Source of the DNA: an uncultured Gammaproteobacteria bacterium
GTDB lineage: Bacteria > Patescibacteriota > Microgenomatia > Levybacterales > UBA12049
DNA: 64,000 nt
Reading direction: 5' to 3'
Assembly (NCBI GenBank): GCA_964474445.1
Contig: CAYYSJ010000001.1
Coordinates: forward strand, 270,530-334,529
The notes beneath the pieces are model-generated. The model ran no database searches, was not told the origin of the DNA, and saw only the letters and a program-made list of their open reading frames with translations. Positions 19,505 through 50,219 of this stretch are shown one piece after another; positions within the stretch are counted from its first letter, which is position 1, and every line of letters begins with the position of its first letter. The position numbers were made by a program, and so were the translations under genes.

Positions 19505-20656
19505 TTAGTTTCGATGCCTCAAAAAGGCGGGAATATCCCAGAGGTCTTCGTTGTTTTCTTCATCTTGCGCCATAGCATTCCCATTTTGTGGAGGTTGTTG
19601 AGTAGGGGTATGTTGAACAGTCTGTACTGGTTGTTGTGGTTCTTCTTTTTTCTGTCCATATCCTCCAAGCGGCTCTGGGACAAATTGAGATAATTTTTGT
19701 TTTGTTTGATCAAATCCAGTTGCAATGAGAGTAATCTTGATAGCATCTTTCATACTTTCATCTATTGTTGTCCCAAAAATAATGTTTGCATCCGGATCTG
19801 CTGCTTCTGAAATAATCTTTGCTGCTTCATCAACTTCTGACATAGACATATCCTCTCCGCCGGTGATATTAAAGAGAACTCCCCTTGCTCCTTCCATAGA
19901 AATTTCAAGAAGCGGACTTGATACAGCTGCTCGTGCTGCTGTTTGTGCTCTGTTTTCTCCTGTCCCACTACCAATACCCATCAATGCACTTCCCGCATTC
20001 ATCATAATGGATCTTACATCTGCAAAGTCAACGTTAATAAGACCAGGGAGAGTAATAAGATCTGAAATGCCTTGGACACCCTGAGACAAGACAGAGTCAG
20101 CAACTCGGAATGCCTCAAGAAGACTTACTTTTCTGTCTACGACATCCAAAATTCGTTGATTTGGAATAACAATAAGCGTATCTACTTTATCTCTCAATTG
20201 ATCAATACCATCTTCCGCATTAACCATACGGCGTGTTCCTTCAAAAGCAAATGGCTTGGTAACAACAGCAATGGTAAGTGCTCCTAATTCTTTAGCAACT
20301 CTTGCGATAACTGGTGCTGCACCAGTACCAGTACCTCCTCCCATTCCCGCTGCCACAAAAACCATGTCTGACCCATGAAGCATATCTTTGATCTTTTCAA
20401 TAGATTCTTCTGCAGCTTGATGGCCAATTTCTGGATCTCCACCACTACCCAACCCTTTGGTAAGTTTTTCTCCGATTTGGATTTTAACAGGAGATGGATT
20501 CAGAAGAAGTGCTTGGGCATCAGTATTAACAGCAATAAAGTCAACTCCTTGAATTTGATTACTGGATATCATGGAAGCAAGAGCGTTTGTTCCACCGCCG
20601 CCGACGCCAACAACACGAATCTTTGCAAAATTAGAGGTTTGTGGCTTGATCAGCAT
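19505..20656 (-). CDS. ftsZ: cell division GTPase FtsZ
   Basis: Tubulin signature [10 protein letters not shown], conserved T7 loop, Gln/Pro-rich C-terminal linker. Confidence 0.97.
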
Positions 20657-20805
20657 GGTACTCCGATGCTAGCAGATACCTATAACAATTGCAATACCTA
20701 CATAGGTAGTGTTATCAGATAAGTCCAAACACTAATTAATCTGGGGATTTTAAAGGATTAGAAAACTCAAAAAATCAAAGAGTCTGAGGGGTTACTATTC
20801 TGATT

Positions 20806-22080
20806 TTAGGGGATAAATGATTTGAAGAATTCTAGGATTTTCTTTCCCAATTTTCCCGAGGGAAGACCAGGAAGTTTTGGCAATCCAATACTAAAGGATG
20901 TCGATGCAGGAGTCTCTTTTACCCCATACATCAAAAGTCCCACTGCTGTTGAGAATGCAGGATCCTGAACTTCATCAATAATTCCTTTGAGTCCAGAAGG
21001 CACACCAACTCTTACAGGCATAGCAAGAGTTCGTTTTGCTGATTCAACAATACCAACAGTGCGTGCTCCTCCACCGGTTACAACAACACCAGCTGGCGTC
21101 TGACCACCCCAACTCGATTTTTTTAGCTCAAGTCCAACCATGGTAAATATTTCATTGAGTCTCGGACGAATAATTCCCTCAACAAGTGTTTTCTGAGAAA
21201 CTTTCTTTAAATCTTCAGGTAAATTAAGTTGTGTCAGGTCTAACTCATCACTGGGTCGTCTTTCCTCATCTGAAACTGGTTTTCTTTTATGAGGGTCTGA
21301 TAAAAAGAGTTTGATTTTTTCTGCAGACTCTAAAGAAATGCGAAGGCCAATTGCCAAATCATTGGTGATATGTCGTGCACCAATCGGCAAAACACTGGAA
21401 TGAGCAACAGCTCCATCAACCCAGATGGAAATATCTGTTGTCCCAGCACCTATATCAACTAACACAACACCTAATTCTTTTTCTGTTTCGGATAGAACAG
21501 CCATTGAAGATGCATATCCAGAAAACACCACAGCTGAAGCATCAACGCCTACCTCCGTGAGCGCTTTTTCAAGATTGCGTAAAGAGGTCGTACCTGCTGA
21601 GATAAGATGTGTTTCAACTTCAAGCCTCACTCCTGTCATCCCCACAGGAGCTTTAATACCCTCCTGTCCATCCACAGTATAGCTTCGTGGGAGTATATGG
21701 ATAATTTCTCGAGAAGATGGGAAAGAAACAGCCTTTGCAGCATCAATAACACGCACTAAATCGTTTTCACTAATTTCTCCTTCTGGTTGAGAAACAGCAA
21801 CAACACCTCGTGAATTTTGAGACTCAATATGTGACCCACTAATTGATGCAACAACTTTACTTGCCGAATACCCGGCCATTCTTTCTGATGCTTCTAACGA
21901 TGCGTTAATTGCCCTTACTGCATCTTCAATGGCAACAATTTGTCCTTTTTTAATCCCTGAAGAGGCAGTTTCTGATACACCAAGAATATTTAATACATTC
22001 TCTTCGCTTACTTTTGCTATTAGGGTAACAATTTTTGCGGTACCAATATCAATTCCAACTAGTATTTTATTATCAGCCAT
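20806..22080 (-). CDS. ftsA: cell division protein FtsA (actin-like ATPase)
   Basis: VGIDIGTAKIV phosphate-1 motif, actin fold motifs, position directly upstream of ftsZ. Confidence 0.95.
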   Translation of the reverse strand: MADNKILVGIDIGTAKIVTLIAKVSEENVLNILGVSETASSGIKKGQIVAIEDAVRAINASLEASERMAGYSASKVVASISGSHIESQNSRGVVAVSQPEGEISENDLVRVIDAAKAVSFPSSREIIHILPRSYTVDGQEGIKAPVGMTGVRLEVETHLISAGTTSLRNLEKALTEVGVDASAVVFSGYASSMAVLSETEKELGVVLVDIGAGTTDISIWVDGAVAHSSVLPIGARHITNDLAIGLRISLESAEKIKLFLSDPHKRKPVSDEERRPSDELDLTQLNLPEDLKKVSQKTLVEGIIRPRLNEIFTMVGLELKKSSWGGQTPAGVVVTGGGARTVGIVESAKRTLAMPVRVGVPSGLKGIIDEVQDPAFSTAVGLLMYGVKETPASTSFSIGLPKLPGLPSGKLGKKILEFFKSFIP

Positions 22081-22083
22081 ATC

Positions 22084-22512
22084 TTAGAATGTTGCGAACG
22101 GTTTTTCAAAACGAAAATCCAGTTTTTTAAACTGCTTTCCTTCTATTGTAAGTTGAGACAAAGTTAGTTGTAAAGAGGTTAATTGTTTTTGTAAGTCTTT
22201 CTGGGACGAGAGGAGAATACTACTACCATTATCAAGCGTTATGGTAACACCGCCCTGGCTTTCTGAAATATTGCTACAGGGAATTTTATTTTCCTCGCAA
22301 AACGACTTTATAGTATATACGATACTATCCGTTGCCTTGTCGCCACTACTTCCGTAGCTTGCCAATGGACTGGTTACTCTCTCTCCTACAAGATATTTCC
22401 ATCCAAAAAGAAGCACACATAATAAAAGGGTACAGAGAAAAACACCGAATGAGATAAAGAGCCTTTGGAAGATTATACGATTTTTTCTTTTTTGGATACT
22501 GTCTTGGCGCAT
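22084..22512 (-). CDS. FtsQ/DivIB-like short membrane protein
   Basis: Single N-terminal TM, short periplasmic domain, sits between murG and ftsA as in dcw clusters. Confidence 0.45.
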   Translation of the reverse strand: MRQDSIQKRKNRIIFQRLFISFGVFLCTLLLCVLLFGWKYLVGERVTSPLASYGSSGDKATDSIVYTIKSFCEENKIPCSNISESQGGVTITLDNGSSILLSSQKDLQKQLTSLQLTLSQLTIEGKQFKKLDFRFEKPFATF

Positions 22513-23594
22513 AATTGTATTACTGCAGCTATTTTCTCTGCTGCCTTGAGGTGAAGCTGTGCTTTGTCCGAAAGTCGAGCAGGATCTGTTGCCTTCATCC
22601 CCATCATAGCAGTAATTGCCTTTACAAAGCTACTTGGTGTCGCTGTTGATTGGTGCAAAATCATGCCAAGTCCTTCTTTTTCCAAAAGAAGCGCATTCTC
22701 AAGTTGTTCATTTTTTTGTCCAAATGTAAGGGGTATTAAGAGGCTTTTTTTCCCAAGTACTAAAAGCATGGTAATAGTATTAATACCTGACCGGGTCACG
22801 ACTCCATCTGCTTTGTCAAATATTCCCCATACTTCATCTGGAGGAATAAATTTGGCAACTTCGTAACGCTCCTGTAAATCTTTGGGCAATTGTTCTCTTG
22901 CATTTTGTAATGTAGCAAAGTCGCCAAAAAATGATGCATTTCCTGTTTGATGGAAAACTCGAAAATGAGCCAACAATTCTGGAAGGGATTGTCTTACTAA
23001 TTCATTGATAGCGTGAGAACCTGCACTACCACCAACAATTGCAAGAAGTGGTAATCTTCCAGTAGGCAATTTTACTGTTACTTTTTTGCTAAGTGGTAGG
23101 AGAGGATTGCCTGTCAAAAGAGATTTTTCTTTTGGAAAAAAGGCGAGAGACTGTTCCCAACTGACACAAATTTTTGTTGCAAAATGGGAGAGTATTTTGT
23201 TCGCCATTCCAGTTTTTAATATTTGCTCATGAATGACTAATGGTATCCCTACCAGTTTTGCTGCAAGGCCAACAGGAAATGAAATATACCCACCAAACCC
23301 TACAACAACGTCTGGTTTTTCTTTTTGTAAAATTCCCACTGCTTCCCATAGCCCTCGTGGTATTTTGAAAAGAGATTGCAGGGTATGGGGTGTGATAACA
23401 CGCTGAAGCCTTCCAGTAGTAAGAGAAATAAATGGTATTCCCATTTGACGTATTGTTTGATACTCAAGAGAATCACCTTTATCACCTTCAAAAGAATGTC
23501 TCCTTCCAACATAGACAACCTGGACATCTTTTGGCAATGCAGCAATAACTGCAAGTGCCGGTCCCATATGTCCTCCAGTAATAAGTACTTTCAT
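22473..23594 (-). CDS. murG: UDP-GlcNAc:lipid I GlcNAc transferase MurG
   Basis: MKVLITGGHMGPALAV N-terminal motif, GT28 fold. Start moved to internal ATG (23594) to remove overlap with ftsW. Confidence 0.9.
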   Translation of the reverse strand: MKVLITGGHMGPALAVIAALPKDVQVVYVGRRHSFEGDKGDSLEYQTIRQMGIPFISLTTGRLQRVITPHTLQSLFKIPRGLWEAVGILQKEKPDVVVGFGGYISFPVGLAAKLVGIPLVIHEQILKTGMANKILSHFATKICVSWEQSLAFFPKEKSLLTGNPLLPLSKKVTVKLPTGRLPLLAIVGGSAGSHAINELVRQSLPELLAHFRVFHQTGNASFFGDFATLQNAREQLPKDLQERYEVAKFIPPDEVWGIFDKADGVVTRSGINTITMLLVLGKKSLLIPLTFGQKNEQLENALLLEKEGLGMILHQSTATPSSFVKAITAMMGMKATDPARLSDKAQLHLKAAEKIAAVIQLCAKTVSKKEKIV

Positions 23595-23653
23595 AAAAAA
23601 AGTATAAAGGTTTTCGTGTGAAGTATAAAGGAGATAACATCTCCCGATATCAC

Positions 23654-24727
23654 CTATGTATGGCTTTGTCTTGCGATATTTAACAGTATCCCAACAGAGC
23701 ACAAATCAATAACGAGTGACGATCCTCCGTATGAAATAAACGGCAAAGGAACACCAGTTAAAGGAAGAACAGCCGTCTGTGCACCTAAATTAATAAGCAT
23801 CTGACTTCCTAAAAAAGCGGTTAATCCACCAGCAAGGAGTTTTCCAAAGGTGTCGTGAGACCTGATAGCAATATACATACCTCGCCAGATAACGGCAATA
23901 AGAAGCAGAATAAGAATAATACTACCAAAAAATCCTAACTCTTCGGCAATAATGGCAAAGATAGAATCAGTAGTATTCTCGGGTAAATATGCATATTTCT
24001 GTAAAGAATTCCCAATTCCTACCCCAAACATGCCTCCTGAGCCAAGCGCAATAAGAATCTGACGGACATGGTAGGATGTATTATTCACATCCTGAGATGC
24101 ATTAAAAAATGTTGTTAGGCGCTGTGCCCGATACGGCGCGAGCTTAATCAGGATAACTGCCAACACACCAACAACTGGAATACTCAGGATAAAATGCATA
24201 AGATTTCCTCCCGAAAGAAAATACAGAATCAATGCTTCACACATGATAATAATTGTTGTTCCCATATCTGGTTCAAGCATCACAAGACCTAAAACAAGGC
24301 CAATTAATAGTGCGAATGCCAGAAACCTTCCTTTTTCCTTTCTGCTAAACCACGCTGCAAGATAGATAGCTAGAGACAACTTTACAAATTCTGCAGGCTG
24401 TAAAACAAAAAGCCGCAAATTTATCCACCGATGCGCACCGAGTACTTTTACGCCAATTCCTGGAATAAAGACAGCAAGTAGAAGTCCAATCGCAGCAATA
24501 AGAAGTGGCATTGCCAAGTTATAAAATTTTTTATAATCAAACCAGGCAAAAAATCCCATTCCGATAAACCCAATAACCATCCAAATTGCCTGATCCTTAA
24601 TATAGTGGTACTTATTGCCAAAATCCCTGAATGAGATATAACTTGATGCGTCAAAAATAACAAACAGACCAAAAAGGGAAAGTAAAACAACCAGCCCGAG
24701 AAGGACAATATCAAGCCGTTTCATCAC
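23654..24727 (-). CDS. ftsW: SEDS-family peptidoglycan glycosyltransferase FtsW
   Basis: 10-TM SEDS architecture with conserved large extracytoplasmic loop. dcw position. Confidence 0.9.
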   Translation of the reverse strand: MMKRLDIVLLGLVVLLSLFGLFVIFDASSYISFRDFGNKYHYIKDQAIWMVIGFIGMGFFAWFDYKKFYNLAMPLLIAAIGLLLAVFIPGIGVKVLGAHRWINLRLFVLQPAEFVKLSLAIYLAAWFSRKEKGRFLAFALLIGLVLGLVMLEPDMGTTIIIMCEALILYFLSGGNLMHFILSIPVVGVLAVILIKLAPYRAQRLTTFFNASQDVNNTSYHVRQILIALGSGGMFGVGIGNSLQKYAYLPENTTDSIFAIIAEELGFFGSIILILLLIAVIWRGMYIAIRSHDTFGKLLAGGLTAFLGSQMLINLGAQTAVLPLTGVPLPFISYGGSSLVIDLCSVGILLNIARQSHT

Positions 24728-24802
24728 TTTAATAATAGTCTATTTTCAAGCTGAAAGGAATACAACAGAGAGAGAAGCTTGACTGAAGAAGTGCCCAATA
24801 TC

Positions 24803-25819
24803 CTAGTGAACAAATGCCATGTAAAGACCAATGACAGCAAAAATAAATCCTAAAAGCCATGCCCGCATAACAATTTTTGGTTCTTCCCATCCTCTTTTCA
24901 AAAAATACAAATGAAGTGGCGCAACAGGGAAAATTTTTCTTCCTAAAAATCTTTTTGCCAAAATCTGCAAAAGTGATGACCCAATCTCGAGAACAAATAC
25001 TCCTCCAATAATTGCAAGCGCAATAATTTTTCCTGTTAATAGACCAATAATTGCTAAGGTTGCACCAAGGGCAAGTGATCCAACGTCACCCAGCCAAAGA
25101 CGCGCTTTATAGATATTAAAGTACAAGAATGCGCCGACTGTTCCCATCAGAATAGCAATAAAAATACCAAGAGAAATATCAAGTTGAGCAGCAGAGATAG
25201 ACAAGAAAGCAAGAAGTGCTATCAGGAAAAGACCCGAGGCTAGTCCATCAAGTCCGTCTGTGATATTAAACGCATTGGTAAAAGAAACAATCACAAAAGC
25301 TGCAAATGGAATAAACAAGAATCCAAGACTTGCCAGTCCAATCCCTCGAATAAAAATAAAGTTATACCCAAGCTTATTATAGAGAAGTATTGCCAAAATA
25401 AAAGCCAACGCCCATTGAATTAAAAATTTATGTCTGAATCTGAGTCCAAAAAATGTTGCTTTGCCACTTTCCTTATGAACCAGTTTTTTAAAGTCATCAT
25501 ACAGTCCTAATAATCCAAATCCAACAAATCCACCAAGAAGAATTGTTAATTCCCAAGGGTTAATATTGACATTTAAAATGCCATATGCCCAAAGAGTAAG
25601 GATAGAAACAACCGTAATGATTAATGCTCCTCCACCAAAGGGAGTACCGACTTTCCATTCGTTAAGCTTATCAAATACTACCGTTCGTTTATTAAATAAA
25701 TCCTTTGTTATCTGTTTTTGTCTTTGCAGTTTTATCTTATATAAGAAGTCAATAAATGGCACCAGGAGTATTGCAGTAATAAAAAAAGACAGAATAGTAA
25801 GCCCCAAAAGCTGTGACAT
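24803..25819 (-). CDS. mraY: phospho-N-acetylmuramoyl-pentapeptide transferase MraY
   Basis: NAFNITDGLDGLASG and other MraY signature loops. Confidence 0.95.
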   Translation of the reverse strand: MSQLLGLTILSFFITAILLVPFIDFLYKIKLQRQKQITKDLFNKRTVVFDKLNEWKVGTPFGGGALIITVVSILTLWAYGILNVNINPWELTILLGGFVGFGLLGLYDDFKKLVHKESGKATFFGLRFRHKFLIQWALAFILAILLYNKLGYNFIFIRGIGLASLGFLFIPFAAFVIVSFTNAFNITDGLDGLASGLFLIALLAFLSISAAQLDISLGIFIAILMGTVGAFLYFNIYKARLWLGDVGSLALGATLAIIGLLTGKIIALAIIGGVFVLEIGSSLLQILAKRFLGRKIFPVAPLHLYFLKRGWEEPKIVMRAWLLGFIFAVIGLYMAFVH

Positions 25820-25858: not shown

Positions 25859-26875
25859 TCAGTACCCTTTTCTCAAGCGACTCAGAGTCTCAACAAGATA
25901 TGTTTTTAGATACCAAGGAGAGAGCGGCAAGTCTTGTGCGTGTAAAAATTCCCGCTTTTCTCCTCCAAATCCTGTTTTAAAAAGCGTTAATCCTGCCCAT
26001 GGGTGTTTTTTTGACTCATTTGATGCAATCCCCCAAAAATTGTACAGTTTTTTTCCTCTTTTTTTTGTTTCTTTGATCGCTTCCCATTGCAACAGATATG
26101 AGACAGACAAATGCCTGTAGGCATCATCACTAGCTCCATGGTGGTAAATTGCCATATTGCCGGCAAATGTAATAAGTGCGCCTCCAATGATTTTGCCTTC
26201 ATATTCAGCTAAGAAAAGCACTGCTTCTTTATCTCCCCCCAACCGTTCTAGCTCCTCCACCAGTCCCTTATGGGCAATAAATCCTCGTTGATGTGCAAGA
26301 CTATTATAGATTTCCAAAAAAGCAACAACATCCTTGTTTACTCGTTCTGTAGTAAAAATACGAATATGTTCCTTCTGAGATTTTTTGATAAGGTATCGAT
26401 GCGACTTTCTCATACCAGAAAGAATATCTTCTTCACGTTGTGTAATATCTAATACCCAACACACTTCCGCATCCATATTATGGATTGGCGAATTACGAAA
26501 TCCAAAGCTTTGCAACAATTTTTCTTCTTGCCCGTGTTTCTCAACAAGTGGACTCATTCGAATGAAATCATATCTTCCATCAGCAAGATCTTTTAGATAT
26601 GCAAGCAGCTTTTCTACATATGCTTTTTTATATTCAGCAAAAATTGGTCCATGTCTCAGATGTAAATAGTTACCTCGCTTTGCTTTTACAGAGACAACTT
26701 GCGCAATACCCACTAATGTTTCATTGTCATAGATACCTAAGCGATGTATACGAAACCCTAATGTTTGCTGCACTTCTCCCCAATTCCACGTTTGGAAAAA
26801 GGGGAAAAAGCCTTTGTAATGCTGAAGAAATGTATTCCAAATCGTTTTGCTCGTAACTTCTTTAATTTTTACCAT
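25859..26875 (-). CDS. FemAB-family aminoacyltransferase (lipid II peptide branch addition)
   Basis: YHHGASDDAYRHLSVSYLLQWEAIKETKKRG and FKTGFGGE match conserved FemABX blocks. Confidence 0.8.
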   Translation of the reverse strand: MVKIKEVTSKTIWNTFLQHYKGFFPFFQTWNWGEVQQTLGFRIHRLGIYDNETLVGIAQVVSVKAKRGNYLHLRHGPIFAEYKKAYVEKLLAYLKDLADGRYDFIRMSPLVEKHGQEEKLLQSFGFRNSPIHNMDAEVCWVLDITQREEDILSGMRKSHRYLIKKSQKEHIRIFTTERVNKDVVAFLEIYNSLAHQRGFIAHKGLVEELERLGGDKEAVLFLAEYEGKIIGGALITFAGNMAIYHHGASDDAYRHLSVSYLLQWEAIKETKKRGKKLYNFWGIASNESKKHPWAGLTLFKTGFGGEKREFLHAQDLPLSPWYLKTYLVETLSRLRKGY

Positions 26876-28082
26876 ATGCTTTTACTATCTTAACAACTTT
26901 TTCTCTCTCTTTTCTAGAGAGCGTTGGATATGTCGGAAGATTGATAATATGTGCTGCGAGATACTCTGCCTTTGGACAATCCTTTTTGTAACCCACTTTT
27001 GATAGATTTGTTTCATGAGGATCGATAACATGAGCATACCAATCTCCTAAAAGGATTCCTGCATGTTTTGCAAGTTTTTTCAGGTGGGTAGGATGTCTTA
27101 CTAAGAGTGGGTAACGAAGCAACGGAATGCCTGGAAAATGCTTTCCTCCCACTTCGGATAGTTCTTGTGCATAAAATCCTGCTGTTTCTTCCCGATATGT
27201 ATTAAATCTATCCAGCCTTTTCAATTGAAGAAGCGCTAAATAAGCAAGTTGGGGAGGCAATTTTTTTGTAAAATTTGAAAAATGTCGTAGCTCGTTTTTT
27301 GTAACCGGTTTAGCAAGAAGATGAAGTTTTTGACATAACAGAAGAACTATTTTTCCAAGAAGTATGTTGTATAAAGGTAAAATGAGAAAGAAGAAGACTA
27401 CACTATGGAATAACTGCTGAAATATCCAGAAAGAGGATGGGTATTGTTGTTGGATATAGTATGCAGAAAGACGCTGTCCAATTTCCTTACTACTCGTTAT
27501 CACGACACCACCAGATACAGAGGAAAATGCCTTATCCCGTCCAAAACTAAAAACTGCTGCATCACCTATTGTTCCAAGCTTTCTTCCTTTGTACGTACTG
27601 CCAATCGCATGCGCAACATCTTCAATGACAAATAATTGCTTTTCCTTAAGAAATTTTTCTAACTCTGGTGTATAGGCAGGAATACCAAACGTATGTTGCA
27701 GAAGAATGGCTTTTGTTTTCTTTGTTACCTTTTTTTTCAAGTCGTCAACGTCAAGAGCAAAAGCATGGGTGATATCAACATAAACAGGTGTTGCACCAGT
27801 TGCTATGATGGCATGAGAAACAGCAACACAGGTAAATGCTTGCAGTATAACTTCATCTCCTTTTCCAATTCCCTGAATTTGTAAAAGTGTGGTTATTCCT
27901 CCTCGAGCAGAAACAAATGGGAACGCATACGGCACAGAGAAAAAATTGCAAAACCACTCAGTAAGTTTTTCATCTTCTTTTTCCTGAGAAACTTTTTTTG
28001 AAGAGAGGAGAAGCTGTAATGCAGCAATAGCATCTATTTTCTCCAAATTGGGCGCAAGCCCGAGTGCAATTGGTCTATTCAT
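26862..28082 (-). CDS. DegT/DnrJ/EryC1/StrS-family PLP-dependent sugar aminotransferase
   Basis: GDEVILQAFTCVAVSHAI, and SFGRDK containing the PLP-binding Lys. Confidence 0.85.
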   Translation of the reverse strand: MNRPIALGLAPNLEKIDAIAALQLLLSSKKVSQEKEDEKLTEWFCNFFSVPYAFPFVSARGGITTLLQIQGIGKGDEVILQAFTCVAVSHAIIATGATPVYVDITHAFALDVDDLKKKVTKKTKAILLQHTFGIPAYTPELEKFLKEKQLFVIEDVAHAIGSTYKGRKLGTIGDAAVFSFGRDKAFSSVSGGVVITSSKEIGQRLSAYYIQQQYPSSFWIFQQLFHSVVFFFLILPLYNILLGKIVLLLCQKLHLLAKPVTKNELRHFSNFTKKLPPQLAYLALLQLKRLDRFNTYREETAGFYAQELSEVGGKHFPGIPLLRYPLLVRHPTHLKKLAKHAGILLGDWYAHVIDPHETNLSKVGYKKDCPKAEYLAAHIINLPTYPTLSRKEREKVVKIVKAYGKN

Positions 28083-29670
28083 ATACTTTTTTTAAAACAA
28101 CACCTGCTTCCTTTCCTTCAAAAACAATACAATCTCCTTTTTGGGGGAATCTCTTCAGTATATCTGTCAATTCTTCATATGTACCATAAATCAGTACCGC
28201 TTTTCCGTCTTTTGAACGAATACCTGTTTCAATATCTTTATAATAATTTTTATTTGTGACTAACAAATAATCAACATCTGCTAATACTTGTCCAATTTCT
28301 CTATGTCGCTTCGCTGCATGTTTTCCTAATTCAATGAGTGGAGTTAATATGAAAAATTTCTTAGTGGAAAAAAGATTCAGATAATTTGCTGCTGATATGA
28401 CAGATTCCGGGCTTGCATTAAATGTGTCATCCACTCCAATAACTCCACGAGGAAGATCAACTTTTTGTAATGTATGCGGGAGAGGATGAATGATGTTTAC
28501 CCCTTTTTGAATTTCCTTATCATTAAGACCAAAGTGTATCCCTAGATAAATTGCTGGAAGAATATTTTCTAAAACATGTTGGCCAATAAGATTTGTTTTC
28601 AAATGCATTGTTTGTTGTGCAAATGAGACACTGAAGAGAATACTGTCTGTTTTTAATGTAACATCATATGCAACTATGAAATTTTTTCTTGATAGCATGG
28701 GAGCATCTGCTACTTTAGTAAAGATCTTTTTTTGTTTTGTTTTTGTAGAAAGAAACGTAGTATTTTTATTGTTTGCATTAAAAATAGCAATACCATTTTT
28801 CGCCAATGCGTGAATCAACTCACTTTCTGAGGCAATGACATTTTCAAAATTTCCGTATAACGATAAATGTTGATCACTTACAGATGTTGTTACACTAATG
28901 TGAGGTTTTACCATTGTACATAATTGCGCGATCTCTCCTATTTTATATGCACCCATTTCTACAACAAAAAATTGCGTTGTTTCATCTATCTGTTTTAAGA
29001 TTGTTTTCGCAATACCAATAGGAGTGTTATTGGAAAGTGGCGTTTTTACGACTGAAAACTTCTGAGACAGTATTGTTGCAATTGCCTCTTTTGTAGAGCT
29101 TTTGCCATAACTGCCACTTACAGCAATGACTGTTAATTGTTTGCACTGTTTTATTTTTTTCTGGGCTTTTTGCATAAGATAATCCGTATAAATCTCCGAA
29201 GGGAATGACAACAAAAATACCCAAACGCTAACGACAAATGGAGTAATTCCTAACAAAATAAGTGTCCATAAGTACTTGTCTGTAAGCGGAAAGAAAAAAA
29301 GCACAGAAGTACTAACAAGACTTAATAAAATAATAAGGGCTGTCTTATAGGTAAAAATAGGACGTTTCAGTTTCCTATCAAGAATCTGTTTTCCAAAATC
29401 AAAAACAGAGAAAAGAAAAAATCCCAACACAAATACCTGAAAAAATGGAGCGAACCAATCAAAAAGGATAACGAATATATAAGATAGTATGATAAGGGTT
29501 CCACCAATTGTTGAAGAGGATGCAAAAAGTTTTTTCCCTTGATTTGTTTCACGTAAATGAACAAGTAACCTGTCCAATCGATATTCTTTATTTTGCCAAA
29601 GACCTGTCCAAAACAATATTTTTCTTAACGAAGCAAAGAGTAATACAACAAAAAGAAAAAGTAATAACAT
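28075..29670 (-). CDS. Mur ligase family protein, MurF-like, with N-terminal about 150-aa 4-TM anchor
   Basis: P-loop VIAVSGSYGKSSTKEAIATIL and MurF-like LSNNTPIGIAKTIL motif, preceded by four hydrophobic helices. Confidence 0.7.
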   Translation of the reverse strand: MLLLFLFVVLLFASLRKILFWTGLWQNKEYRLDRLLVHLRETNQGKKLFASSSTIGGTLIILSYIFVILFDWFAPFFQVFVLGFFLFSVFDFGKQILDRKLKRPIFTYKTALIILLSLVSTSVLFFFPLTDKYLWTLILLGITPFVVSVWVFLLSFPSEIYTDYLMQKAQKKIKQCKQLTVIAVSGSYGKSSTKEAIATILSQKFSVVKTPLSNNTPIGIAKTILKQIDETTQFFVVEMGAYKIGEIAQLCTMVKPHISVTTSVSDQHLSLYGNFENVIASESELIHALAKNGIAIFNANNKNTTFLSTKTKQKKIFTKVADAPMLSRKNFIVAYDVTLKTDSILFSVSFAQQTMHLKTNLIGQHVLENILPAIYLGIHFGLNDKEIQKGVNIIHPLPHTLQKVDLPRGVIGVDDTFNASPESVISAANYLNLFSTKKFFILTPLIELGKHAAKRHREIGQVLADVDYLLVTNKNYYKDIETGIRSKDGKAVLIYGTYEELTDILKRFPQKGDCIVFEGKEAGVVLKKVYE

Positions 29671-29673
29671 AAT

Positions 29674-30381
29674 TTACTGTAAAAAATCCAATACATACTT
29701 TGCAAATACCGTTGGATTCTCATACGGCAATTTGTGTGAAGATGCAGGGATAGATGCAACAAGTGCATGCGGTATAAGCGTTGCAATACGTTGACCAACG
29801 GAAAACGGAACAAATGTATCTTTTTCACCCCAGATAATATAGGTTGGGACTGGTATATGAGGTAGTATATCTTTTAAATCTTCATGAATAATATGTTTAA
29901 ATGTTGCTTTTAGTTTTCCTGCTTTATAATAGTCCCACTCTCCCAAAACCTTATAAACTGATTTTGTCATGAATTGCTGAAAAGGAGCAGGCATACCTTC
30001 TATCACCTTTTTAACAGGTTTTACAAATACAGTAACAAGGCGTTTTTTCAAAGAAAGAGATTGCTTAATAAGAGGGGCACCGGTAAGAACAAGTTTCTCA
30101 ACAGAAGTTGGGTATTGGGCTGTAAATTTTGCAGCAACCCTTCCCCCAAAAGAATGCCCAATAAGAATTGCCTTTTGTATGTTCTTCTCTTTAAGATAAT
30201 TCTTTATAAAGAGCACATAATCATTAAGCACCATGGTTTTTTGTAATGGTTCACTGCCAAATCCCGGCATGTCTGGAGCAAAGACCGTATACCCTTGCTT
30301 TTCAAAGAGTGACTGGATTACTTGATAATCTTTGCCTGACTTTCCCCATCCATGTAAAATAACAATCACTTTTTTCATCAC
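29674..30381 (-). CDS. alpha/beta-fold hydrolase (esterase/lipase-like)
   Basis: GHSFGG nucleophile elbow. Asp/His later in sequence. Confidence 0.75.
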   Translation of the reverse strand: MMKKVIVILHGWGKSGKDYQVIQSLFEKQGYTVFAPDMPGFGSEPLQKTMVLNDYVLFIKNYLKEKNIQKAILIGHSFGGRVAAKFTAQYPTSVEKLVLTGAPLIKQSLSLKKRLVTVFVKPVKKVIEGMPAPFQQFMTKSVYKVLGEWDYYKAGKLKATFKHIIHEDLKDILPHIPVPTYIIWGEKDTFVPFSVGQRIATLIPHALVASIPASSHKLPYENPTVFAKYVLDFLQ

Positions 30382-30416: not shown

Positions 30417-32180
30417 TTACTTCACAACAACACTTTTCGCCAAATTGCGGGGCTTATCTGGGTCCGCAAACCCTTTTTGAAGTGCTAATTCATACGCAAG
30501 CAATTGAGACACCACAACTTGTGGAATAATGGTGGCTATACCAATATCAGCAGTATGAATGAAAACATCAAACACAGCATTTGCTTTTGGTCCTATGCCG
30601 ATAATATATCCACCTCGTGCTTTTATTTCTTGTGCATTAGAAATTATTTCTTCATAGGTTTCGTCATATGGTGCCATAACAATACAAGGAGTTCCTTTTT
30701 CAATCAGTGCAATCACACCATGTTTTAATTCTCCACCAGCAAATCCTTCCGCATGAATATATGTTGTTTCTTTTAATTTGAGTGCTGCTTCAAGAGCTGC
30801 TGCATACGATACTCCTCTCCCGATAATATATATATGCTCTTTATTTTTTAGATAGGATGCAAGTTCTTTAATCTTTTTTTGTGTTGGTGTTTTAAATAGT
30901 TCAGTAATATTTTTTGCAGCCGCATGTAACAGCTGTTGTCCATCTGCAAATTTCTTTCCTAAATAGTATGCAGTTGAGATCAATATAGAGAGCATTGCAA
31001 TAAAGCTTTTTGTTGCAATTACTGCCTTTTCTGGTCCTGCTTGTAAAAGAACATGCATATCAGACTGCCGATATAGCGTTGAACCAAGGACATTGACGAT
31101 AGATGCAATTTTTGCACCTCTTTTCTTTGCATTTGCAACTGGATCTACAACATCAATTGTTTCTCCACTTTGAGAAATAGGAATAACAAGACTTTCAGGG
31201 GTAAGGTAATCCTCCAAATATTTAAATTCTGATCCAACAGAAAAATTAACATGTTTTTTTGCAATTTTTGAGAAGAAATATACTCCAGCAAGTGCAGCAT
31301 AGGAAGCAGTGCCACACCCGAGGAAAAATGTTCCGTAGGCTTTTTCAATAAGTGACGCAAATTGTTTTATTTGACTTTCGCCATTGAGTGCAATATTTTC
31401 AATAATTTTTGGCTGTTCATGAATTTCTTTTTCTAAGAAGTGTTTATATTCCCCTTTTTCTGCAGATTCAAATTCCCAATCAATTTTTGTTATGATCGGT
31501 TTTATTTCTTTTCCACTTGGAAGCTGGATCAGTTTCAGCGACTCACCCAGTATCACCATTTGATTATCCTCAAGAAAGATAACATCTCTGGTATGTTTGA
31601 TAATTCCTGAAACATCTGATGCAACATAGAGTCCATCATTACCAATGCCTGCAACAATTGGAGAACCATTTTTGACTGCAATAATTTCTTTTGATAAGGC
31701 ATTTGCTACGACAAACGCGTTAAATCCTCTCACGGCAAGAAATGCATTTTTCACTGCTGTTGCAAAACCTGATGATTTGAGATTTTCTTCTATAAGATGC
31801 ACTGCTACTTCCGTATCTGTTTCAGAGACAAAGGTGTGTCCTCTTTTAAGAAGTCCATCTTTTATTTCTTGAAAATTTTCAATAATACCGTTATGAACCA
31901 GTGCAATTTGTTTGTGACAGTCGAGGTGAGGATGGGCATTTGCTACTGTTACCCCTCCATGGGTTGCCCAACGTGTGTGTCCGATACCAAGGATACTTTC
32001 TGGAAGTACTGTCTTTGCATCACCAATTTTCCCAATGTGCTTTTCAACAACAAGTTTTTTCCCTTCTTTTACTGCTATTCCCCAAGAGTCATACCCTCTA
32101 TATTCCAGCAATTTGAGTCCATAGAGCACGTCTTCTGCAGCCGAATCTTTTATCCCTACATACGCAAATATTCCACACAT
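30417..32180 (-). CDS. glmS: glutamine--fructose-6-phosphate aminotransferase GlmS
   Basis: MCGIFAY N-terminal nucleophile Cys, two SIS domains. Confidence 0.95.
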   Translation of the reverse strand: MCGIFAYVGIKDSAAEDVLYGLKLLEYRGYDSWGIAVKEGKKLVVEKHIGKIGDAKTVLPESILGIGHTRWATHGGVTVANAHPHLDCHKQIALVHNGIIENFQEIKDGLLKRGHTFVSETDTEVAVHLIEENLKSSGFATAVKNAFLAVRGFNAFVVANALSKEIIAVKNGSPIVAGIGNDGLYVASDVSGIIKHTRDVIFLEDNQMVILGESLKLIQLPSGKEIKPIITKIDWEFESAEKGEYKHFLEKEIHEQPKIIENIALNGESQIKQFASLIEKAYGTFFLGCGTASYAALAGVYFFSKIAKKHVNFSVGSEFKYLEDYLTPESLVIPISQSGETIDVVDPVANAKKRGAKIASIVNVLGSTLYRQSDMHVLLQAGPEKAVIATKSFIAMLSILISTAYYLGKKFADGQQLLHAAAKNITELFKTPTQKKIKELASYLKNKEHIYIIGRGVSYAAALEAALKLKETTYIHAEGFAGGELKHGVIALIEKGTPCIVMAPYDETYEEIISNAQEIKARGGYIIGIGPKANAVFDVFIHTADIGIATIIPQVVVSQLLAYELALQKGFADPDKPRNLAKSVVVK

Positions 32181-32183
32181 AGC

Positions 32184-32831
32184 TTAATCTTTCAGTAATG
32201 ATACCACGTCTGCTAGGTTTGTCACTATGGCATCTGGTTCAAAGCCTGAAGGCAACTCGGCTTGGAGAGCAAATTTCCCTCTCTTTATCCATATAGTAAA
32301 AAGGTCATTTTTGAGTAATTTTGCTTTATGAAGTATGGTCACTAGGTCATCAATCAAGACGACTTTCTCTCTTTGATATGTACGCATTAACTCGGGCAAC
32401 GTCTCTTCCTTAAATTCTGCAACATGAACATGTTTTGTTTCAAAAAAATCTGATAAAGAAGAAATTTTCTGGAGTTGAAATGCTGTTTTTCCTGCTGAGA
32501 AAATTCCCAAGGCAATATTGTTTCTTTCCTGAAGTTTTTGCAGCGTCAGTAATACCTCAGGATACAATGCCTTCTTGATAGTATCTGTATCAAACCAAAG
32601 AGACTCAATTTCCTCTTCTGCTACTGTTAAGGCATGTTTCTTAGTGAAAAGCTGAGCAAATAGTTTTGGATCAAAACTTCCTTTCTGTCTAACTTCATAA
32701 TATACTTCATCTATGAGTTTTACATCTGCATGAGGAACATACGACACTAACATGTCTGCAACAAGTTGTTTAAATCGTGTTGTATCAAAAAGTGTATAGT
32801 CAATATCAAAAAGAACTATTTTCTTATTCAT
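32184..32831 (-). CDS. HAD-superfamily hydrolase
   Basis: Motif I LFDIDYTLFDT (DxDxT), motif III/IV Asp near C-terminus. Confidence 0.65.
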   Translation of the reverse strand: MNKKIVLFDIDYTLFDTTRFKQLVADMLVSYVPHADVKLIDEVYYEVRQKGSFDPKLFAQLFTKKHALTVAEEEIESLWFDTDTIKKALYPEVLLTLQKLQERNNIALGIFSAGKTAFQLQKISSLSDFFETKHVHVAEFKEETLPELMRTYQREKVVLIDDLVTILHKAKLLKNDLFTIWIKRGKFALQAELPSGFEPDAIVTNLADVVSLLKD

Positions 32832-34077
32832 GTTTTCTTTTTCTTACAATAGTTTTAAATTTTGTGTAATAGATACTGTCATCTTCGACATTCTCCATGA
32901 CAACAGTTGATGGTCCCACAGTCACATTGTTACCAATAATAATCCCTGGCATAATGGTCACATTGACTCCAAAATTCGTATTCTCCCCTGCAATAGCGCC
33001 AACATGAGTCCTATGTGTGTTTACAGTTTCATTTCTCACTTTTGAATGAATATATCCTCTATCTAGTCTGACGTTTGCAGTAAGAAATCCTGCAGCAAGT
33101 CTTGTGTTTGCTCCGATAATGCTATCACCAATAAAACCTGTATGAGTTGTAGTGCTTTGGAAAATAATGGAATTTTTTACTTCCATCGTTGCTCCTATGA
33201 CAACATTTTTTTCAACGATAACCCCATTACGAAGAATTGCGTTATTTCCAACAATGACATTCTCACCCAAAAAACATGGACCCTTAATACATGCTCCTTC
33301 AAGTATCTGCACCCCGTCTGAGACATACACAGGACCGACAAGGACGGCATTCGGAGCAATTCTTGCTTTTTTACTGATATGAGAACGAACATCTTTAAGC
33401 AACAGATCTTTTACAGACAACAAATCCCAGGCATATTTCAATGTTATTGTTTCCATGTGAGCAAGTGTATAACCAACTCGGCCTTCTTTCGCGTAAGCAT
33501 CAAGTGCTTTTTCAAAATGATAGTGCTCAATAGGCGTTTCTTCTAATACCGCGAGGAACTGTTTCGAGAGTAGGTACATGCCAATAACGCGCAGGCCTTT
33601 CCCCATCTTTTGTGAGGGTTTTTCGACAACATGCTTTACTTCCTTTCCGGCAACATCCAACACACCGTATTCTGCAAGAGTAACATCTTCCTTGGCAAGT
33701 AGTACAACATCATGCCGTCTATCTTTTGCTTGCAACAATTGGGGAATAGCATCTGCACATTCAAAATGATATGCACTTAAAAGAAAAAATGAATCTTCTA
33801 CGTATTCTTTTGCTGATAATAATGCATGACCCATACCAAGTGTTTCCTTTTGCACAACGTATCGAATCGACATACCAGGAATATCAGGAATCATTGAAGC
33901 AATAGAACTTTCCTCTGCTATAACAATAATGACATTTGTTACATGAGCTTTTTTTAGCGATAACAGGGTATGATGGAGAAGGGATATATCCATAAGAGGA
34001 GTAATAGATTTATGAGGAAACGATACAAATGGATAAAATCGCTTTGATTTACCTGCTGCTAAAATAACTGCCTGCAT
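32824..34077 (-). CDS. sugar-1-phosphate nucleotidyltransferase fused to left-handed beta-helix acyltransferase (GlmU-like, archaeal-type)
   Basis: N-terminal ILAAGKSKRF NTP-transferase loop. C-terminal hexapeptide repeats (IGNNVTVG etc). Confidence 0.7.
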   Translation of the reverse strand: MQAVILAAGKSKRFYPFVSFPHKSITPLMDISLLHHTLLSLKKAHVTNVIIVIAEESSIASMIPDIPGMSIRYVVQKETLGMGHALLSAKEYVEDSFFLLSAYHFECADAIPQLLQAKDRRHDVVLLAKEDVTLAEYGVLDVAGKEVKHVVEKPSQKMGKGLRVIGMYLLSKQFLAVLEETPIEHYHFEKALDAYAKEGRVGYTLAHMETITLKYAWDLLSVKDLLLKDVRSHISKKARIAPNAVLVGPVYVSDGVQILEGACIKGPCFLGENVIVGNNAILRNGVIVEKNVVIGATMEVKNSIIFQSTTTHTGFIGDSIIGANTRLAAGFLTANVRLDRGYIHSKVRNETVNTHRTHVGAIAGENTNFGVNVTIMPGIIIGNNVTVGPSTVVMENVEDDSIYYTKFKTIVRKRKHE

Positions 34078-34080
34078 AGA

Positions 34081-34824
34081 TTATGCTTGCACGTTGGCAT
34101 ATAATGTTTGTGCCTCTGCAAGTTCTTCCTTCGTATTGACGCCTCGCCAAGGAATATTTCCTACATTCATTGTTTCTACTTTTTCATGATGTTTCACTGC
34201 TAATTCCACTAAACTTACTAAATAATATTCACTAGTGATGTTACTTTTTTTCACTTTTGGGAGGTATTTTTTTAAGAAGTCATAGGTAAAAAGATAACAG
34301 GCGGGGTTAATTTCCTTTATGTTTCTTTCCTCATCAGTTGCATCTTTTTCCTCAACGATTTTTACGAGATTTCCCTCTCGATCTCTGACAATTCTTCCTA
34401 AACCAAATGGATTATCCTGTTCGAGGGTAAGAAAAGTAAATGCAGCTTGAGAACTCAGATGTTTTTCAATGAGTTTTGCAATGGTATCCTGTTTATAGAA
34501 TGCTGAGTCATCACCATTAAGGATTAATACATGGTTAATGGTGGCAGGAAGTTTCTCAAATCCTTTTCGAGCAGCATGCGCAGTTCCAAGTCTTTTTTTC
34601 TGTTCAGCAAAAAAAACTTTTTCACCCAGAATATTCATGACTGATTCTTTTGCAAAACCTACAACAATAACTAATGGGTGGATATTGAGACTCTCTAAAA
34701 GTTCTACAGAATGAACAATCATCGGTTTATCCGCCAACATAAGGGTTACTTTATTTGCCGTCTTTGATTTCATCCGAGAACCTTTTCCTGCTGCTAAAAC
34801 AATTGCTCCAATTTTCGGTATCAT
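34081..34824 (-). CDS. GlmU N-terminal-type UDP-GlcNAc pyrophosphorylase domain protein (split GlmU)
   Basis: VLAAGKGSRMKS and AEQKKRLGTAHA match the E. coli GlmU uridyltransferase blocks LAAGKGTRMYS and AEQLGTGHA. No LbH domain. Confidence 0.7.
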   Translation of the reverse strand: MIPKIGAIVLAAGKGSRMKSKTANKVTLMLADKPMIVHSVELLESLNIHPLVIVVGFAKESVMNILGEKVFFAEQKKRLGTAHAARKGFEKLPATINHVLILNGDDSAFYKQDTIAKLIEKHLSSQAAFTFLTLEQDNPFGLGRIVRDREGNLVKIVEEKDATDEERNIKEINPACYLFTYDFLKKYLPKVKKSNITSEYYLVSLVELAVKHHEKVETMNVGNIPWRGVNTKEELAEAQTLYANVQA

Positions 34825-36155
34825 ACTTCTGCCTCCTTTACTCGTTTAATGTTCGCCCCAAGAACAGATAATCTCTTTTCAAATGCTTCGTATCCTCTCT
34901 CCAGTTTTTCAATACCAAAAATAGTACTTTCTCCTTTTGCAGCGAGTGCTGCCAAAACAACAGCTGCACCTGCACGAATATCAATCGTTGTTAGTACTGC
35001 ATTATGGAGAGGCGTTGGCCCTGCTACCTCAATTGCATGGATATATTCATCATTATCATCCTCTAAGTTAAAGTTATACAATGTTTCTGGATTTTCAACA
35101 TGCGGGTATGCAGGTTCGATACGCGCTCCCATTTTTTTAAGATCAGTTATATACCCAAATTTATTCTCAAAAACAGTTTCATGAATAAAGGAAGTTCCAT
35201 GTGCTTGTGTCATAAGGACTGCCCAAGGAGCTTGCCAATCTGTCATAAACCCTGGATAAATTTGTGTGACAACTTTTGTCGACTGTAGTTCGCCTTTGTA
35301 GAAAAATCGCACACCTTTGGTTGTTTCCTCATAACCACCACCAGCTATTTCTATTTCGTGCAAAAATTCTTTAATATCATGACTTCTTGCTCCTTCAATA
35401 AATATGTCCCCTTTTGTCAAAAGAGCAGCAATCGCAAAGGTTACGACTTCATTTCTATCAGGACTAATGGTAAATTCTGTTCCATGGAGTTTTTCAACAC
35501 CAACAATAGTTATTTCCCGGTGATTTGTTCTTTTTACATTCCCTCCCATTGCATTGAGGAGTTCTATCAAATCATCTATTTCCGGCTCTTCTGCAGCATT
35601 TCGCAAAATAGTTGTACCCTTCGCAAGAACCGCTGCTAAGATAAACGATTCTGTTCCTGTATGTGTGCTTTTGGTGAATGTATATTCTGTAGCATGTAAC
35701 TGCTGAGCCTTTGCGTGAAAGTACCCATCTTCACTATGGTAGGTAATTTCAGCACCTAAGTGAGCAATACCATCGACAAGTCTATCAACTGGTCGTGCAC
35801 CAAGACGGCATCCGCCGGGATTTGGAATAATTGCTTCTCCCGTTCGAACTAACAATGGTGCAATAAACATCACTGAGGTTCGGGCTAATGAGGCTTTTTC
35901 AAGGGGAATTGCAGAATTAAGAATTTTTGGTATATGAACATGTGCTTCATGGTCATGTATTGTTACCTCTCCCCCCAATTCTTTGACAATTTCAGCCATG
36001 ACTGAAAAATCTGAAATAAGTGGCACGTTTTTAATCACTACTTTTTCGTCAGTCAGACATGCAGCAACAAGTGCTTTTAATGCCACGTTTTTAGAGCCAG
36101 ATACTCGAACGTTTCCAACTAATCTATTTCCACCTTTTACAACAAACTTCTCCAT
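34821..36155 (-). CDS. murA: UDP-N-acetylglucosamine 1-carboxyvinyltransferase MurA
   Basis: EPSP-synthase fold, GSKNVALKAL motif, active-site Cys in NPGGCRLGARPVD. Confidence 0.93.
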   Translation of the reverse strand: MEKFVVKGGNRLVGNVRVSGSKNVALKALVAACLTDEKVVIKNVPLISDFSVMAEIVKELGGEVTIHDHEAHVHIPKILNSAIPLEKASLARTSVMFIAPLLVRTGEAIIPNPGGCRLGARPVDRLVDGIAHLGAEITYHSEDGYFHAKAQQLHATEYTFTKSTHTGTESFILAAVLAKGTTILRNAAEEPEIDDLIELLNAMGGNVKRTNHREITIVGVEKLHGTEFTISPDRNEVVTFAIAALLTKGDIFIEGARSHDIKEFLHEIEIAGGGYEETTKGVRFFYKGELQSTKVVTQIYPGFMTDWQAPWAVLMTQAHGTSFIHETVFENKFGYITDLKKMGARIEPAYPHVENPETLYNFNLEDDNDEYIHAIEVAGPTPLHNAVLTTIDIRAGAAVVLAALAAKGESTIFGIEKLERGYEAFEKRLSVLGANIKRVKEAEV

Positions 36156-38839: not shown

Positions 38840-39148
38840 ATGGTTACAATTTCAGTTCATCAGTTAACATCCTTAAAAGAAAAAACACTTGGACTTCTTA
38901 AGAGCAAAAAAGCTTATCCAATCCTCTTTCATACTCGATTTGGTATTCATACCTTTGGCATGAGATATCCCATTGCGGTTGCAATCTTGGATAACACAAA
39001 TACCATTAAGAAATTAGAGGCAGATCTAAAACCTAATAGGCTTTTTTTCTGGAATCCTCTCTTTGATACTGTCGTTGAGCTTCCACGAGGTATGATTCAT
39101 GAATTAAGGCTGCATGTAGGAATGCAAATCGCGTTACAACGTTTCTGA
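38840..39148 (+). CDS. DUF192 (COG1430) family protein
   Basis: ILFHTRFGIHTFGMRYPIAVAILD pattern typical of DUF192. Only plus-strand gene inside the dcw cluster. Confidence 0.6.
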   Translation: MVTISVHQLTSLKEKTLGLLKSKKAYPILFHTRFGIHTFGMRYPIAVAILDNTNTIKKLEADLKPNRLFFWNPLFDTVVELPRGMIHELRLHVGMQIALQRF

Positions 39149-50212: not shown

Positions 50213-50219
50213 ATAATTT

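Follow-up and report, generated by a model that had tools for sequence, protein, structure and literature searches.

A conserved four-gene cassette built around a membrane-anchored ligase of the MurF family is present in the 64,000-nucleotide stretch of contig CAYYSJ010000001.1 that we analysed (assembly GCA_964474445.1, positions 270,530 to 334,529, Levybacterales; hereafter called the window). The cassette lies in a division and cell-wall (dcw) gene cluster. In transcription order, its genes encode a serine alpha/beta hydrolase, the ligase (TM-MurF), a hairpin-bearing DegT-like enzyme that depends on pyridoxal phosphate (PLP; the enzyme is called DegT*) and a FemX-like transferase. TM-MurF is a MurF-family enzyme in which the N-terminal domain is swapped for a conserved five-helix membrane domain. 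An initial annotation of the window had placed a module of three genes, MurF-like, DegT and FemAB, between mraY and a hydrolase/glmS block, with mutual overlaps of 8-14 nt. These minus-strand open reading frames (ORFs) were indeed found: TM-MurF and DegT* overlap by 8 nt, DegT* and the FemX-like gene by 14 nt, and the profile scores for all three families are far beyond chance. However, the module does not end there. The hydrolase gene, whose stop codon is separated from the TM-MurF start by a gap of 3 nt, belongs to the same conserved cassette, and the trio is three quarters of the operon hydrolase-TM-MurF-DegT*-FemX-like. We read the two overlaps and the 3-nt gap as translational coupling in the window. 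Each of the four proteins belongs to a known superfamily, and the functions that we give them below are all inferred. We lean towards the view that the cassette is a membrane-tethered module for late peptidoglycan precursors, which would combine completion of the stem peptide with the addition of a tRNA-borne branch.

The family identity of TM-MurF was determined with profiles, structure prediction and a tree. Among the NCBIfam models, TIGR01143 (murF) was the top match with 207.4 bits over residues 165-520, whereas the murD, murE and murC models gave 80, 57 and 54 bits. Mur_ligase_M (PF08245) matched residues 184-376 with 113 bits. The ATP-binding domain possesses the GxxGK[ST] P-loop, and G186, S187, G189, K190, T193 and K194 are invariant. 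Judged by its residues (P-loop GSYGKSST, E238 and H268), the active site is intact. The best sequence matches in the PDB were all MurF. The AlphaFold2 (AF2) model of TM-MurF had a predicted local distance difference test score (pLDDT) of 91, and its ten best Foldseek matches were again all MurF, the top one at 2.5 Å over 380 columns. In a neighbour-joining tree with E. coli references, all MurF-like sequences formed one clade in 100/100 bootstraps, apart from MurC, MurD and MurE. The initial annotation had named a firm grouping with MurD as the result that would undo it; TM-MurF did not group with MurD. The possibility that TM-MurF is a disguised MurD is ruled out by this separate clade and by the MurD model TIGR01087, which gave 80 bits against a cut-off of 212. 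True MurD proteins of relatives in the candidate phyla radiation scored 359-377 bits with the MurD model and formed a clade of their own. MurT, CapB/PgsB, FolC and cyanophycin synthetase were also considered as identities for TM-MurF and for a second MurF-like ligase of the window (MurF1), and were rejected because their scores were negligible beside MurF.

TM-MurF does not have the soluble three-domain architecture of MurF. In place of MurF domain 1, residues 1-160 contain five transmembrane helices predicted from hydropathy and the AF2 model (AF2 helices 2-27, 52-69, 71-97, 108-126 and 132-175). Because all three positively charged loops lie on one side, an N-out topology with a cytoplasmic ligase is predicted. 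The first cytoplasmic loop carries the motif W..LWQxKEYRxDR...H...TxQG, in which W21, L24, W25, Q26, K28, E29, Y30, R31, D33, H38, T42, Q44 and G45 do not vary among 20 diverse homologs. Because this cytoplasmic loop is so strongly conserved, the domain seems to be more than an anchor. Thus, the membrane domain that the initial annotation had described as a four-helix N-terminal anchor is there, although the helices number five by prediction and the term anchor is too narrow. The domain had no Pfam match even at E<=10, and among 1.84 billion representatives it was confined to the N-terminal end of proteins about 520-560 aa long or fragments of these. These two results rule out a known family or a reused module.

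Full-length homologs of TM-MurF number more than 1000. When one genome per species was scanned, 587 relatives were obtained, from which 80 loci were kept. The stop-to-stop ORFs of these loci were searched with the window proteins and with reference Ddl (D-Ala-D-Ala ligase), Alr, MurD, MurB and MurI, and neighbourhoods were defined as ±10 kb. Within the candidate phyla radiation (CPR; Patescibacteria), the 80 loci come from Levybacteria, Gottesmanbacteria, Saccharibacteria, several groups of Parcubacteria, Magasanikbacteria, Peribacteria and Doudnabacteria. Outside the CPR, they come from Poribacteria, Nitrospirota, Chloroflexi and Clostridia, including the cultured Anaeromicropila populeti. 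We counted the genes downstream of TM-MurF at loci with at least 2.5 kb on that side of the ligase. DegT followed by FemAB was found at 48 loci, FemAB only at 7, DegT only at 2 and Ddl at 16; four further loci pass straight to mraY and three have nothing recognisable. Thus, the synteny that the initial annotation proposed to look for in relatives exists in many CPR lineages. A second Fem paralog lies between hydrolase and ligase at three loci. When a metagenome scan was seeded with the DegT* protein, the order hydrolase-TM-MurF-DegT-FemAB was obtained again. The hydrolase gene is directly upstream of TM-MurF in nearly all CPR loci and in all non-CPR loci. One protein, P0089 (738 aa, on a 3.5-kb JGI contig), was considered as a fusion of hydrolase and TM-MurF that would show their coupling. 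It was dropped as most likely a frameshift between adjacent genes: its hydrolase part lacks the C-terminus including the catalytic His, and its first transmembrane helix is truncated.

Outside the CPR, the partner on the downstream side is ddl. A Ddl of about 400 aa follows TM-MurF directly in 16/16 non-CPR-type modules with enough flank, namely 15 from non-CPR taxa, among them A. populeti, and one from the CPR, the Doudnabacteria locus L072. Poribacteria and Nitrospirota have the order murE-hydrolase-TM-MurF-ddl-mraY-murD. Therefore, TM-MurF sits in the MurF slot. The CPR locus L036 has the order ftsI-murA-murE-murC-murB-murD-murI-hydrolase-TM-MurF-DegT-FemAB-mraY-ftsW-murG-ftsA-ftsZ. In the 21.5 kb examined there, the set of MurC, MurD and MurE is complete and TM-MurF is the sole MurF candidate, as it also is in the complete clusters L006, L017, L018, L032 and L039. 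From the spread of the homologs together with the MurF slot, we conclude that TM-MurF is the regular MurF type of these lineages and not a surplus copy. The initial annotation had held that none of the three genes belongs to the canonical dcw set and that they are an insertion with a second MurF. For TM-MurF the former is wrong, as this protein belongs to the MurF family and its gene stands at the MurF place before mraY. Nor is it an insertion peculiar to this genome or a surplus paralog, since TM-MurF is the form of MurF across the CPR and occupies the ddl-adjacent MurF slot elsewhere.

The TM-MurF proteins of the two settings differ in sequence. Non-CPR proteins have a weaker loop motif (Q, Y, K/R), reading Q..gYk as against LWQxKEYR in the CPR. 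We also observed that the Ddl-linked, non-CPR proteins (L055-L080) have the conserved C-terminal end LFENDLPDNY and that the CPR proteins end like the canonical VKGSR. Going by these motifs, there may be two functional subtypes of TM-MurF.

Within the CPR, the cassette has two main surroundings. In Microgenomates, the window included, mraY comes right after it. A second order, PBP2-lysS-(cytidylyltransferase)-serS-hydrolase-TM-MurF-DegT-FemAB-ftsQ, is conserved in Saccharibacteria, Parcubacteria, Magasanikbacteria and other groups. At three loci, the block of PBP2, lysS, serS and cassette comes directly after mraY-murD-ftsW-murG, the place where murC-murB-ddl normally sit. In about 34 CPR loci, serS directly precedes the hydrolase gene, usually with lysS before it, and both score above the equivalog cut-offs. 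The ±10 kb around the CPR cassettes yielded no ddl at any locus, complete ftsI-to-ftsZ clusters included. Likewise, no dehydratase, oxidoreductase or glycosyltransferase was found among the conserved neighbours of the cassette. The aminoacyl-tRNA synthetase (aaRS) genes near the cassette or near mraZ may indicate a link to the Fem transferase, or they may be mere conserved synteny. The synthetase near mraZ is a glycyl-tRNA synthetase, which in the window is encoded at 59004-60464 on the minus strand (603 bits), a few genes upstream of mraZ, and likewise in the Levybacteria loci L082, L165 and L167.

The hydrolase matched Abhydrolase_1 with 96 bits. The motifs HGW and GHSFGG (with Ser77), Asp187 and His216 are kept across 73 homologs, and the catalytic triad Ser/Asp/His is intact. 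The closest solved structures were generic carboxylesterases. The hydrolase is a constant partner of TM-MurF across several phyla.

DegT* matched PF01041 with 206 bits (E 2e-60; gathering score 19.8) and has more than 3700 homologs. It did not reach any NCBIfam equivalog; the best was ArnB, with 125 bits against a cut-off of 631. None of the residues K184 (the PLP lysine), D155 and H158 varies in 24 homologs or in 43 cassette homologs. The AF2 model (pLDDT 87) gave Foldseek TM-scores of 0.73-0.8 to GDP-perosamine synthase and ArnB, with E 8e-23 for GDP-perosamine synthase. A hydrophobic insertion of about 40 residues (hydropathy up to 2.26; AF2 helices 217-234 and 242-252) forms the predicted hairpin. 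This hairpin is present in 43/43 cassette homologs and in the ddl-linked copy at locus L083, and is absent from a generic DegT. It contains conserved polar residues: H226, Y238, G243, K244 and Q251 do not vary, and Q222 hardly does.

The FemX-like protein matched FemAB (PF02388) with 105 bits (E 5e-30; gathering score 24) and Acetyltransf_6 with 51 bits. Its best solved relatives were S. aureus FemX (6snr) and FemA (1lrz), and W. viridescens FemX (1ne9) gave a weak match. A C-terminal FK.GFGG motif is kept in at least 90% of 48 homologs, and this region aligns to S. aureus FemX and FemA.

The window encodes a second MurF-like ligase, MurF1, which is part of the context of the cassette and not a member of it. 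MurF1 gave 175 bits with TIGR01143 and 29 bits with the murD model, and its P-loop lies about 30 residues from the N-terminus. Its listed ORF (39134-40633) begins at a TTG overlapping ftsI, and the homologs (more than 1600, about 444 aa) place the real start at the ATG at 40465. MurF1 is found between ftsI and murE in several Levybacteria-type clusters without a cassette before mraY (L082, L165 and L166). At L083 it accompanies glmS-DegT-ddl-alr, and at L096 it comes after FemAB. Clusters with the cassette are mostly without MurF1, which has no counterpart in most related clusters, and many dcw clusters hold only one of the two ligases. The window's 420-kb contig carries both. For six more pairs of top TM-MurF and MurF1 matches, the longest contigs are equal in length (145, 34, 32, 24, 24 and 22 kb), and we take each pair to lie on one contig. 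MurF1 may be a second MurF isozyme, the enzyme that adds D-Ala-D-Ala in genomes with ddl and alr, or a substitute for MurD. The MurE of the window has EDPR where enzymes of the diaminopimelate (DAP) type have DNPR, a feature common to its Levybacteria relatives.

In the reading that we favour, the operon would act in the last steps of peptidoglycan precursor synthesis at the cytoplasmic face of the membrane. TM-MurF would add the C-terminal dipeptide to UDP-N-acetylmuramic acid (UDP-MurNAc)-tripeptide while its membrane domain holds it beside MraY. The FemX-like enzyme would then transfer an L-amino acid, carried by an aminoacyl-tRNA, to the amine in the side chain of stem residue 3 and so provide a cross-linking branch. 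The upstream lysS-serS genes of other CPR lineages suggest Ser-tRNA or Lys-tRNA as the donor, and Gly-tRNA is also possible. DegT* may be an accessory PLP enzyme at the membrane whose target would be a primary amine or a keto group, either of the precursor or of its branch. The hydrolase is probably an obligate partner of the membrane-anchored MurF; a role in editing or trimming of the precursor is our guess. The gene identities given in the initial annotation are right, and its general idea, that these genes act on the peptidoglycan precursor, is supported.

Several observations weigh against this assignment. TM-MurF does not reach the TIGR01143 cut-off of 288.6, its match being to model positions 61-406 only. 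In L001, L003, L004 and L039, which are close Levybacteria relatives, TM-MurF stands directly before mraY, without hydrolase, DegT or FemAB. Therefore, the three partner genes are not strictly needed beside TM-MurF, unless these four genomes carry them at another place. As for the synteny with lysS and serS, operon hitch-hiking could account for it, the genomes being small. We identified no murD, murB, ddl, alr or murI in the window, where ten other large ORFs were searched and the rest were of the wrong size, so that the pathway does not close here; murB, murD, murI or the peptidoglycan editing factor gene pgeF is present in related CPR clusters (L036 and L017). Moreover, MurF1 grouped with E. 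coli MurF in 76/100 bootstraps of the neighbour-joining tree. Because of this grouping and of the ddl and alr context at L083, either ligase may perform the canonical MurF step here. Finally, the EDPR motif of MurE does not discriminate DAP from Lys at residue 3, and hence does not discriminate the Fem acceptor.

Other explanations were weighed against the same evidence. The two MurF-family genes of the window, the nucleotide-sugar aminotransferase fold of DegT* and the position of glmS and two GlmU-like genes just upstream would suit an accessory system: the canonical pathway would be complete, and the cassette, built around a surplus MurF paralog, would decorate lipid II with an amino sugar or a further peptide. 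However, TM-MurF is the only candidate for MurF in six complete clusters, and neither a conserved keto-sugar-forming enzyme nor a glycosyltransferase accompanies the cassette. DegT* is dispensable in the seven cassettes that have FemAB only, and at L083 it lies beside ddl and alr without FemAB. The amino sugar on lipid II that the initial annotation suggested has therefore gained no specific support, and we regard such an accessory system as unlikely. A polymer or conjugate other than peptidoglycan, such as a poly-amino acid of the CapB/PgsB kind or a teichoic-type decoration, would make the dcw link positional only. Membrane-anchored Mur-ligase homologs such as PgsB/CapB do make other polymers, and the Clostridia copies of TM-MurF lie outside dcw clusters. 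On the other hand, no PgsB, MurT or cyanophycin-synthetase model came near the MurF score, the structural and sequence neighbours of TM-MurF are MurF, and its linkage to ddl, mraY, ftsQ and mur genes is constant. We consider this explanation highly improbable. The lipid-linked precursor itself could also be the substrate: TM-MurF would act after MraY, on lipid-linked muramyl-tripeptide, and DegT* with its hairpin and the Fem enzyme would act on lipid I or II. MurT, a Mur-ligase homolog without the usual N-terminal domain, works on lipid II. In TM-MurF this domain is swapped for five transmembrane helices with an invariant cytoplasmic loop, the DegT* hairpin bears invariant polar residues, and S. 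aureus FemX, the closest solved Fem relative, is titled lipid II:glycine glycyltransferase in PDB 6snr. However, MurE and MurF1 of the window are also without the N-terminal domain and have no membrane domain. Therefore, loss of this domain alone does not imply a lipid substrate. A ligase gene upstream of mraY is the canonical gene order, and the Fem protein is without the coiled-coil insertion, like the W. viridescens enzyme, whose substrate is the soluble UDP-MurNAc-pentapeptide. Action on lipid-linked precursors is therefore, in our judgement, rather unlikely, though compatible with the architecture.

The absence of ddl near CPR cassettes raises a further alternative, namely that DegT* and the FemX-like enzyme replace Ddl. 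They would make the dipeptide, or an analogue of it, for TM-MurF in an aminoacyl-tRNA-dependent way without an ATP-grasp enzyme: Fem would use a free amino acid as the acceptor for an aminoacyl-tRNA, and DegT* would epimerise the residue with the free amine or convert it in another way. The position is the same, as ddl follows hydrolase-TM-MurF in every non-CPR-type module, whereas DegT-FemAB or FemAB follows in about 57 CPR loci. Moreover, the Saccharibacteria and Parcubacteria cassette lies between murG and ftsQ, the usual place of murC-murB-ddl, the aaRS genes are directly upstream, and the slot from glmS to mraY at L083 holds DegT-ddl-alr instead of hydrolase-TM-MurF-DegT-FemAB. This same L083 arrangement tells against replacement, however, because a DegT* that accompanies ddl and alr is no substitute for them. 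Cassettes with FemAB and no DegT*, and cassettes with two Fem genes, show a pattern typical of branch building. In addition, tRNA brings L-amino acids, and the DD-transpeptidases encoded here need a D-Ala-D-Ala-like terminus. We know of no Fem enzyme that takes a free amino acid as acceptor. Replacement of Ddl is thus improbable. Its general form, that most Patescibacteria make the end of the stem peptide without a D-Ala-D-Ala ligase and that Fem and DegT*, fed by seryl- and lysyl-tRNA synthetases, supply the unit for TM-MurF, is quite improbable; if true, it would be a tRNA-dependent route into core peptidoglycan synthesis.

The genes of the window's dcw cluster, which runs over 19505-43905 as one long minus-strand division and cell-wall cluster, are given below.

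Features of the dcw cluster in the window, in transcription order, with parts of proteins placed under their gene
Feature	Position	Strand	Remarks
mraZ	43396-43905	-	first in transcription order
rsmH	42524-43396	-	
small FtsL-sized ORF	42136-42444	-	
ftsI	40512-42197	-	
MurF1	39134-40465	-	443 aa, no N-terminal domain; cassette context, not cassette member
murE	37595-38818	-	407 aa, short, without the usual N-terminal domain
murC	36162-37598	-	
murA	34821-36155	-	
glmS, HAD-family hydrolase, two GlmU-like genes	30417-34824	-	UDP-N-acetylglucosamine supply block inside the dcw cluster
serine alpha/beta hydrolase	29674-30381	-	235 aa; first cassette gene
TM-MurF	28075-29670	-	531 aa
TM-MurF, N-terminal membrane domain	29191-29670	-	residues 1-160
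TM-MurF, invariant cytoplasmic loop motif	29536-29610	-	residues 21-45
DegT*	26862-28082	-	406 aa, DegT/DnrJ/EryC1-fold PLP enzyme
DegT*, hydrophobic helical hairpin	27315-27440	-	about residues 215-256
FemX-like transferase	25859-26875	-	338 aa
mraY	24803-25819	-	
mraY, ftsW, murG, ftsQ, ftsA, ftsZ	19505-25819	-	downstream end of the cluster

Some further features of the window and of related clusters were observed. The GlmU-like pair consists of an archaeal-type bifunctional GlmU (417 aa) and a separate nucleotidyltransferase resembling the GlmU N-terminus (247 aa). Between MurF1 and murE there is a small ORF on the opposite strand (38840-39148, plus strand, 102 aa), and L082 and L165 have a weak DUF192 gene at the same place and in the same orientation. 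Gottesmanbacteria-type clusters (L017, L018, L032, L006 and L039) encode PgeF between murE and murC, and within the L017 cluster there are also genes for a Rid-family protein and for an MBL-fold hydrolase. Away from the dcw cluster, ORFs of 559 and 761 aa without a Pfam match and an ORF of 1565 aa lie on the minus strand at 46362-50278 and 52098-56795. They adjoin a GT4 glycosyltransferase gene (50995-52101) and may encode cell-surface proteins. A bacterial archaeo-eukaryotic release-factor-like family 10 protein (baeRF) is encoded at 509-1360 on the plus strand.

Peptidoglycan precursor synthesis is among the best-known bacterial pathways, and MurF is treated as a soluble enzyme. Here, a MurF subfamily combines a dedicated membrane domain with a serine-hydrolase partner that is probably obligate; its sequences number in the thousands and span several phyla. 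CPR bacteria are ultrasmall, mostly uncultivated and dependent on hosts for building blocks, and to our knowledge their wall chemistry is essentially unknown. They join MurF to a Fem transferase and an unusual PLP enzyme where other phyla have ddl. The cassette offers four concrete proteins, and muropeptides with branches or other modifications are predicted from it. Should the hydrolase or DegT* prove essential, a pathway that is universal in other respects would have steps peculiar to a lineage. The cassette should be of solid interest to specialists in cell walls and in the CPR. In the full-text literature that we searched, we found neither a MurF with a membrane anchor nor the cassette described, nor a constant hydrolase partner, a hairpin-bearing DegT* or a four-gene CPR cassette with upstream aaRS genes.

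Several known systems resemble parts of the cassette. DegT* shares with the DegT/DnrJ/EryC1/StrS aminotransferases (ArnB, GDP-perosamine synthase, PseC and BtrR) the fold, the PLP lysine, the aspartate and the EDxAHA motif. It differs in its hairpin, in a divergent C-terminal domain, in falling short of every equivalog cut-off, and in standing in a peptidoglycan precursor context instead of a glycan cluster, with no conserved partner that forms a keto sugar. The FemX-like protein belongs with FemX, FemA, FemB and MurM in PF02388, although it gave only about 23-48 bits to solved Fem proteins. With its 338 aa, it is similar to the 335-aa chain of W. viridescens FemX (1ne9), both being without the coiled-coil insertion that the S. 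aureus Fem proteins possess. In contrast to those known enzymes, its gene is in an operon with MurF and a PLP enzyme, often downstream of lysS and serS in the CPR.

TM-MurF shares with MurF (TIGR01143; PDB 4qf5, 4cvk, 3zl8 and 1gg4) the central ATP-binding and C-terminal domains, the P-loop, the catalytic residues, the clade and the genomic slot upstream of mraY, beside ddl in other phyla. It differs in the membrane domain of about 160 residues with its invariant loop, which replaces the N-terminal domain, in its score below the curated cut-off and in its constant serine alpha/beta hydrolase partner. Operons of ddl and murF are known, for example in Bacillus subtilis, and the non-CPR modules likewise keep MurF and Ddl adjacent. 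However, their order is hydrolase-TM-MurF-ddl, their Ddl has about 400 aa, and the CPR has DegT* and Fem at the ddl position. Natural Mur chimeras (PMC10214165) tie a Mur enzyme to a membrane protein, as in MurD-FtsW and MraY-MurG. The TM-MurF membrane domain is not mentioned in the passages of that survey that we consulted. The chimeras are a precedent for physical coupling of cytoplasmic Mur steps to membrane steps. In contrast to the chimeras, the membrane part of TM-MurF is a domain of its own, known from no other kind of protein, and not a fusion to a known divisome enzyme.

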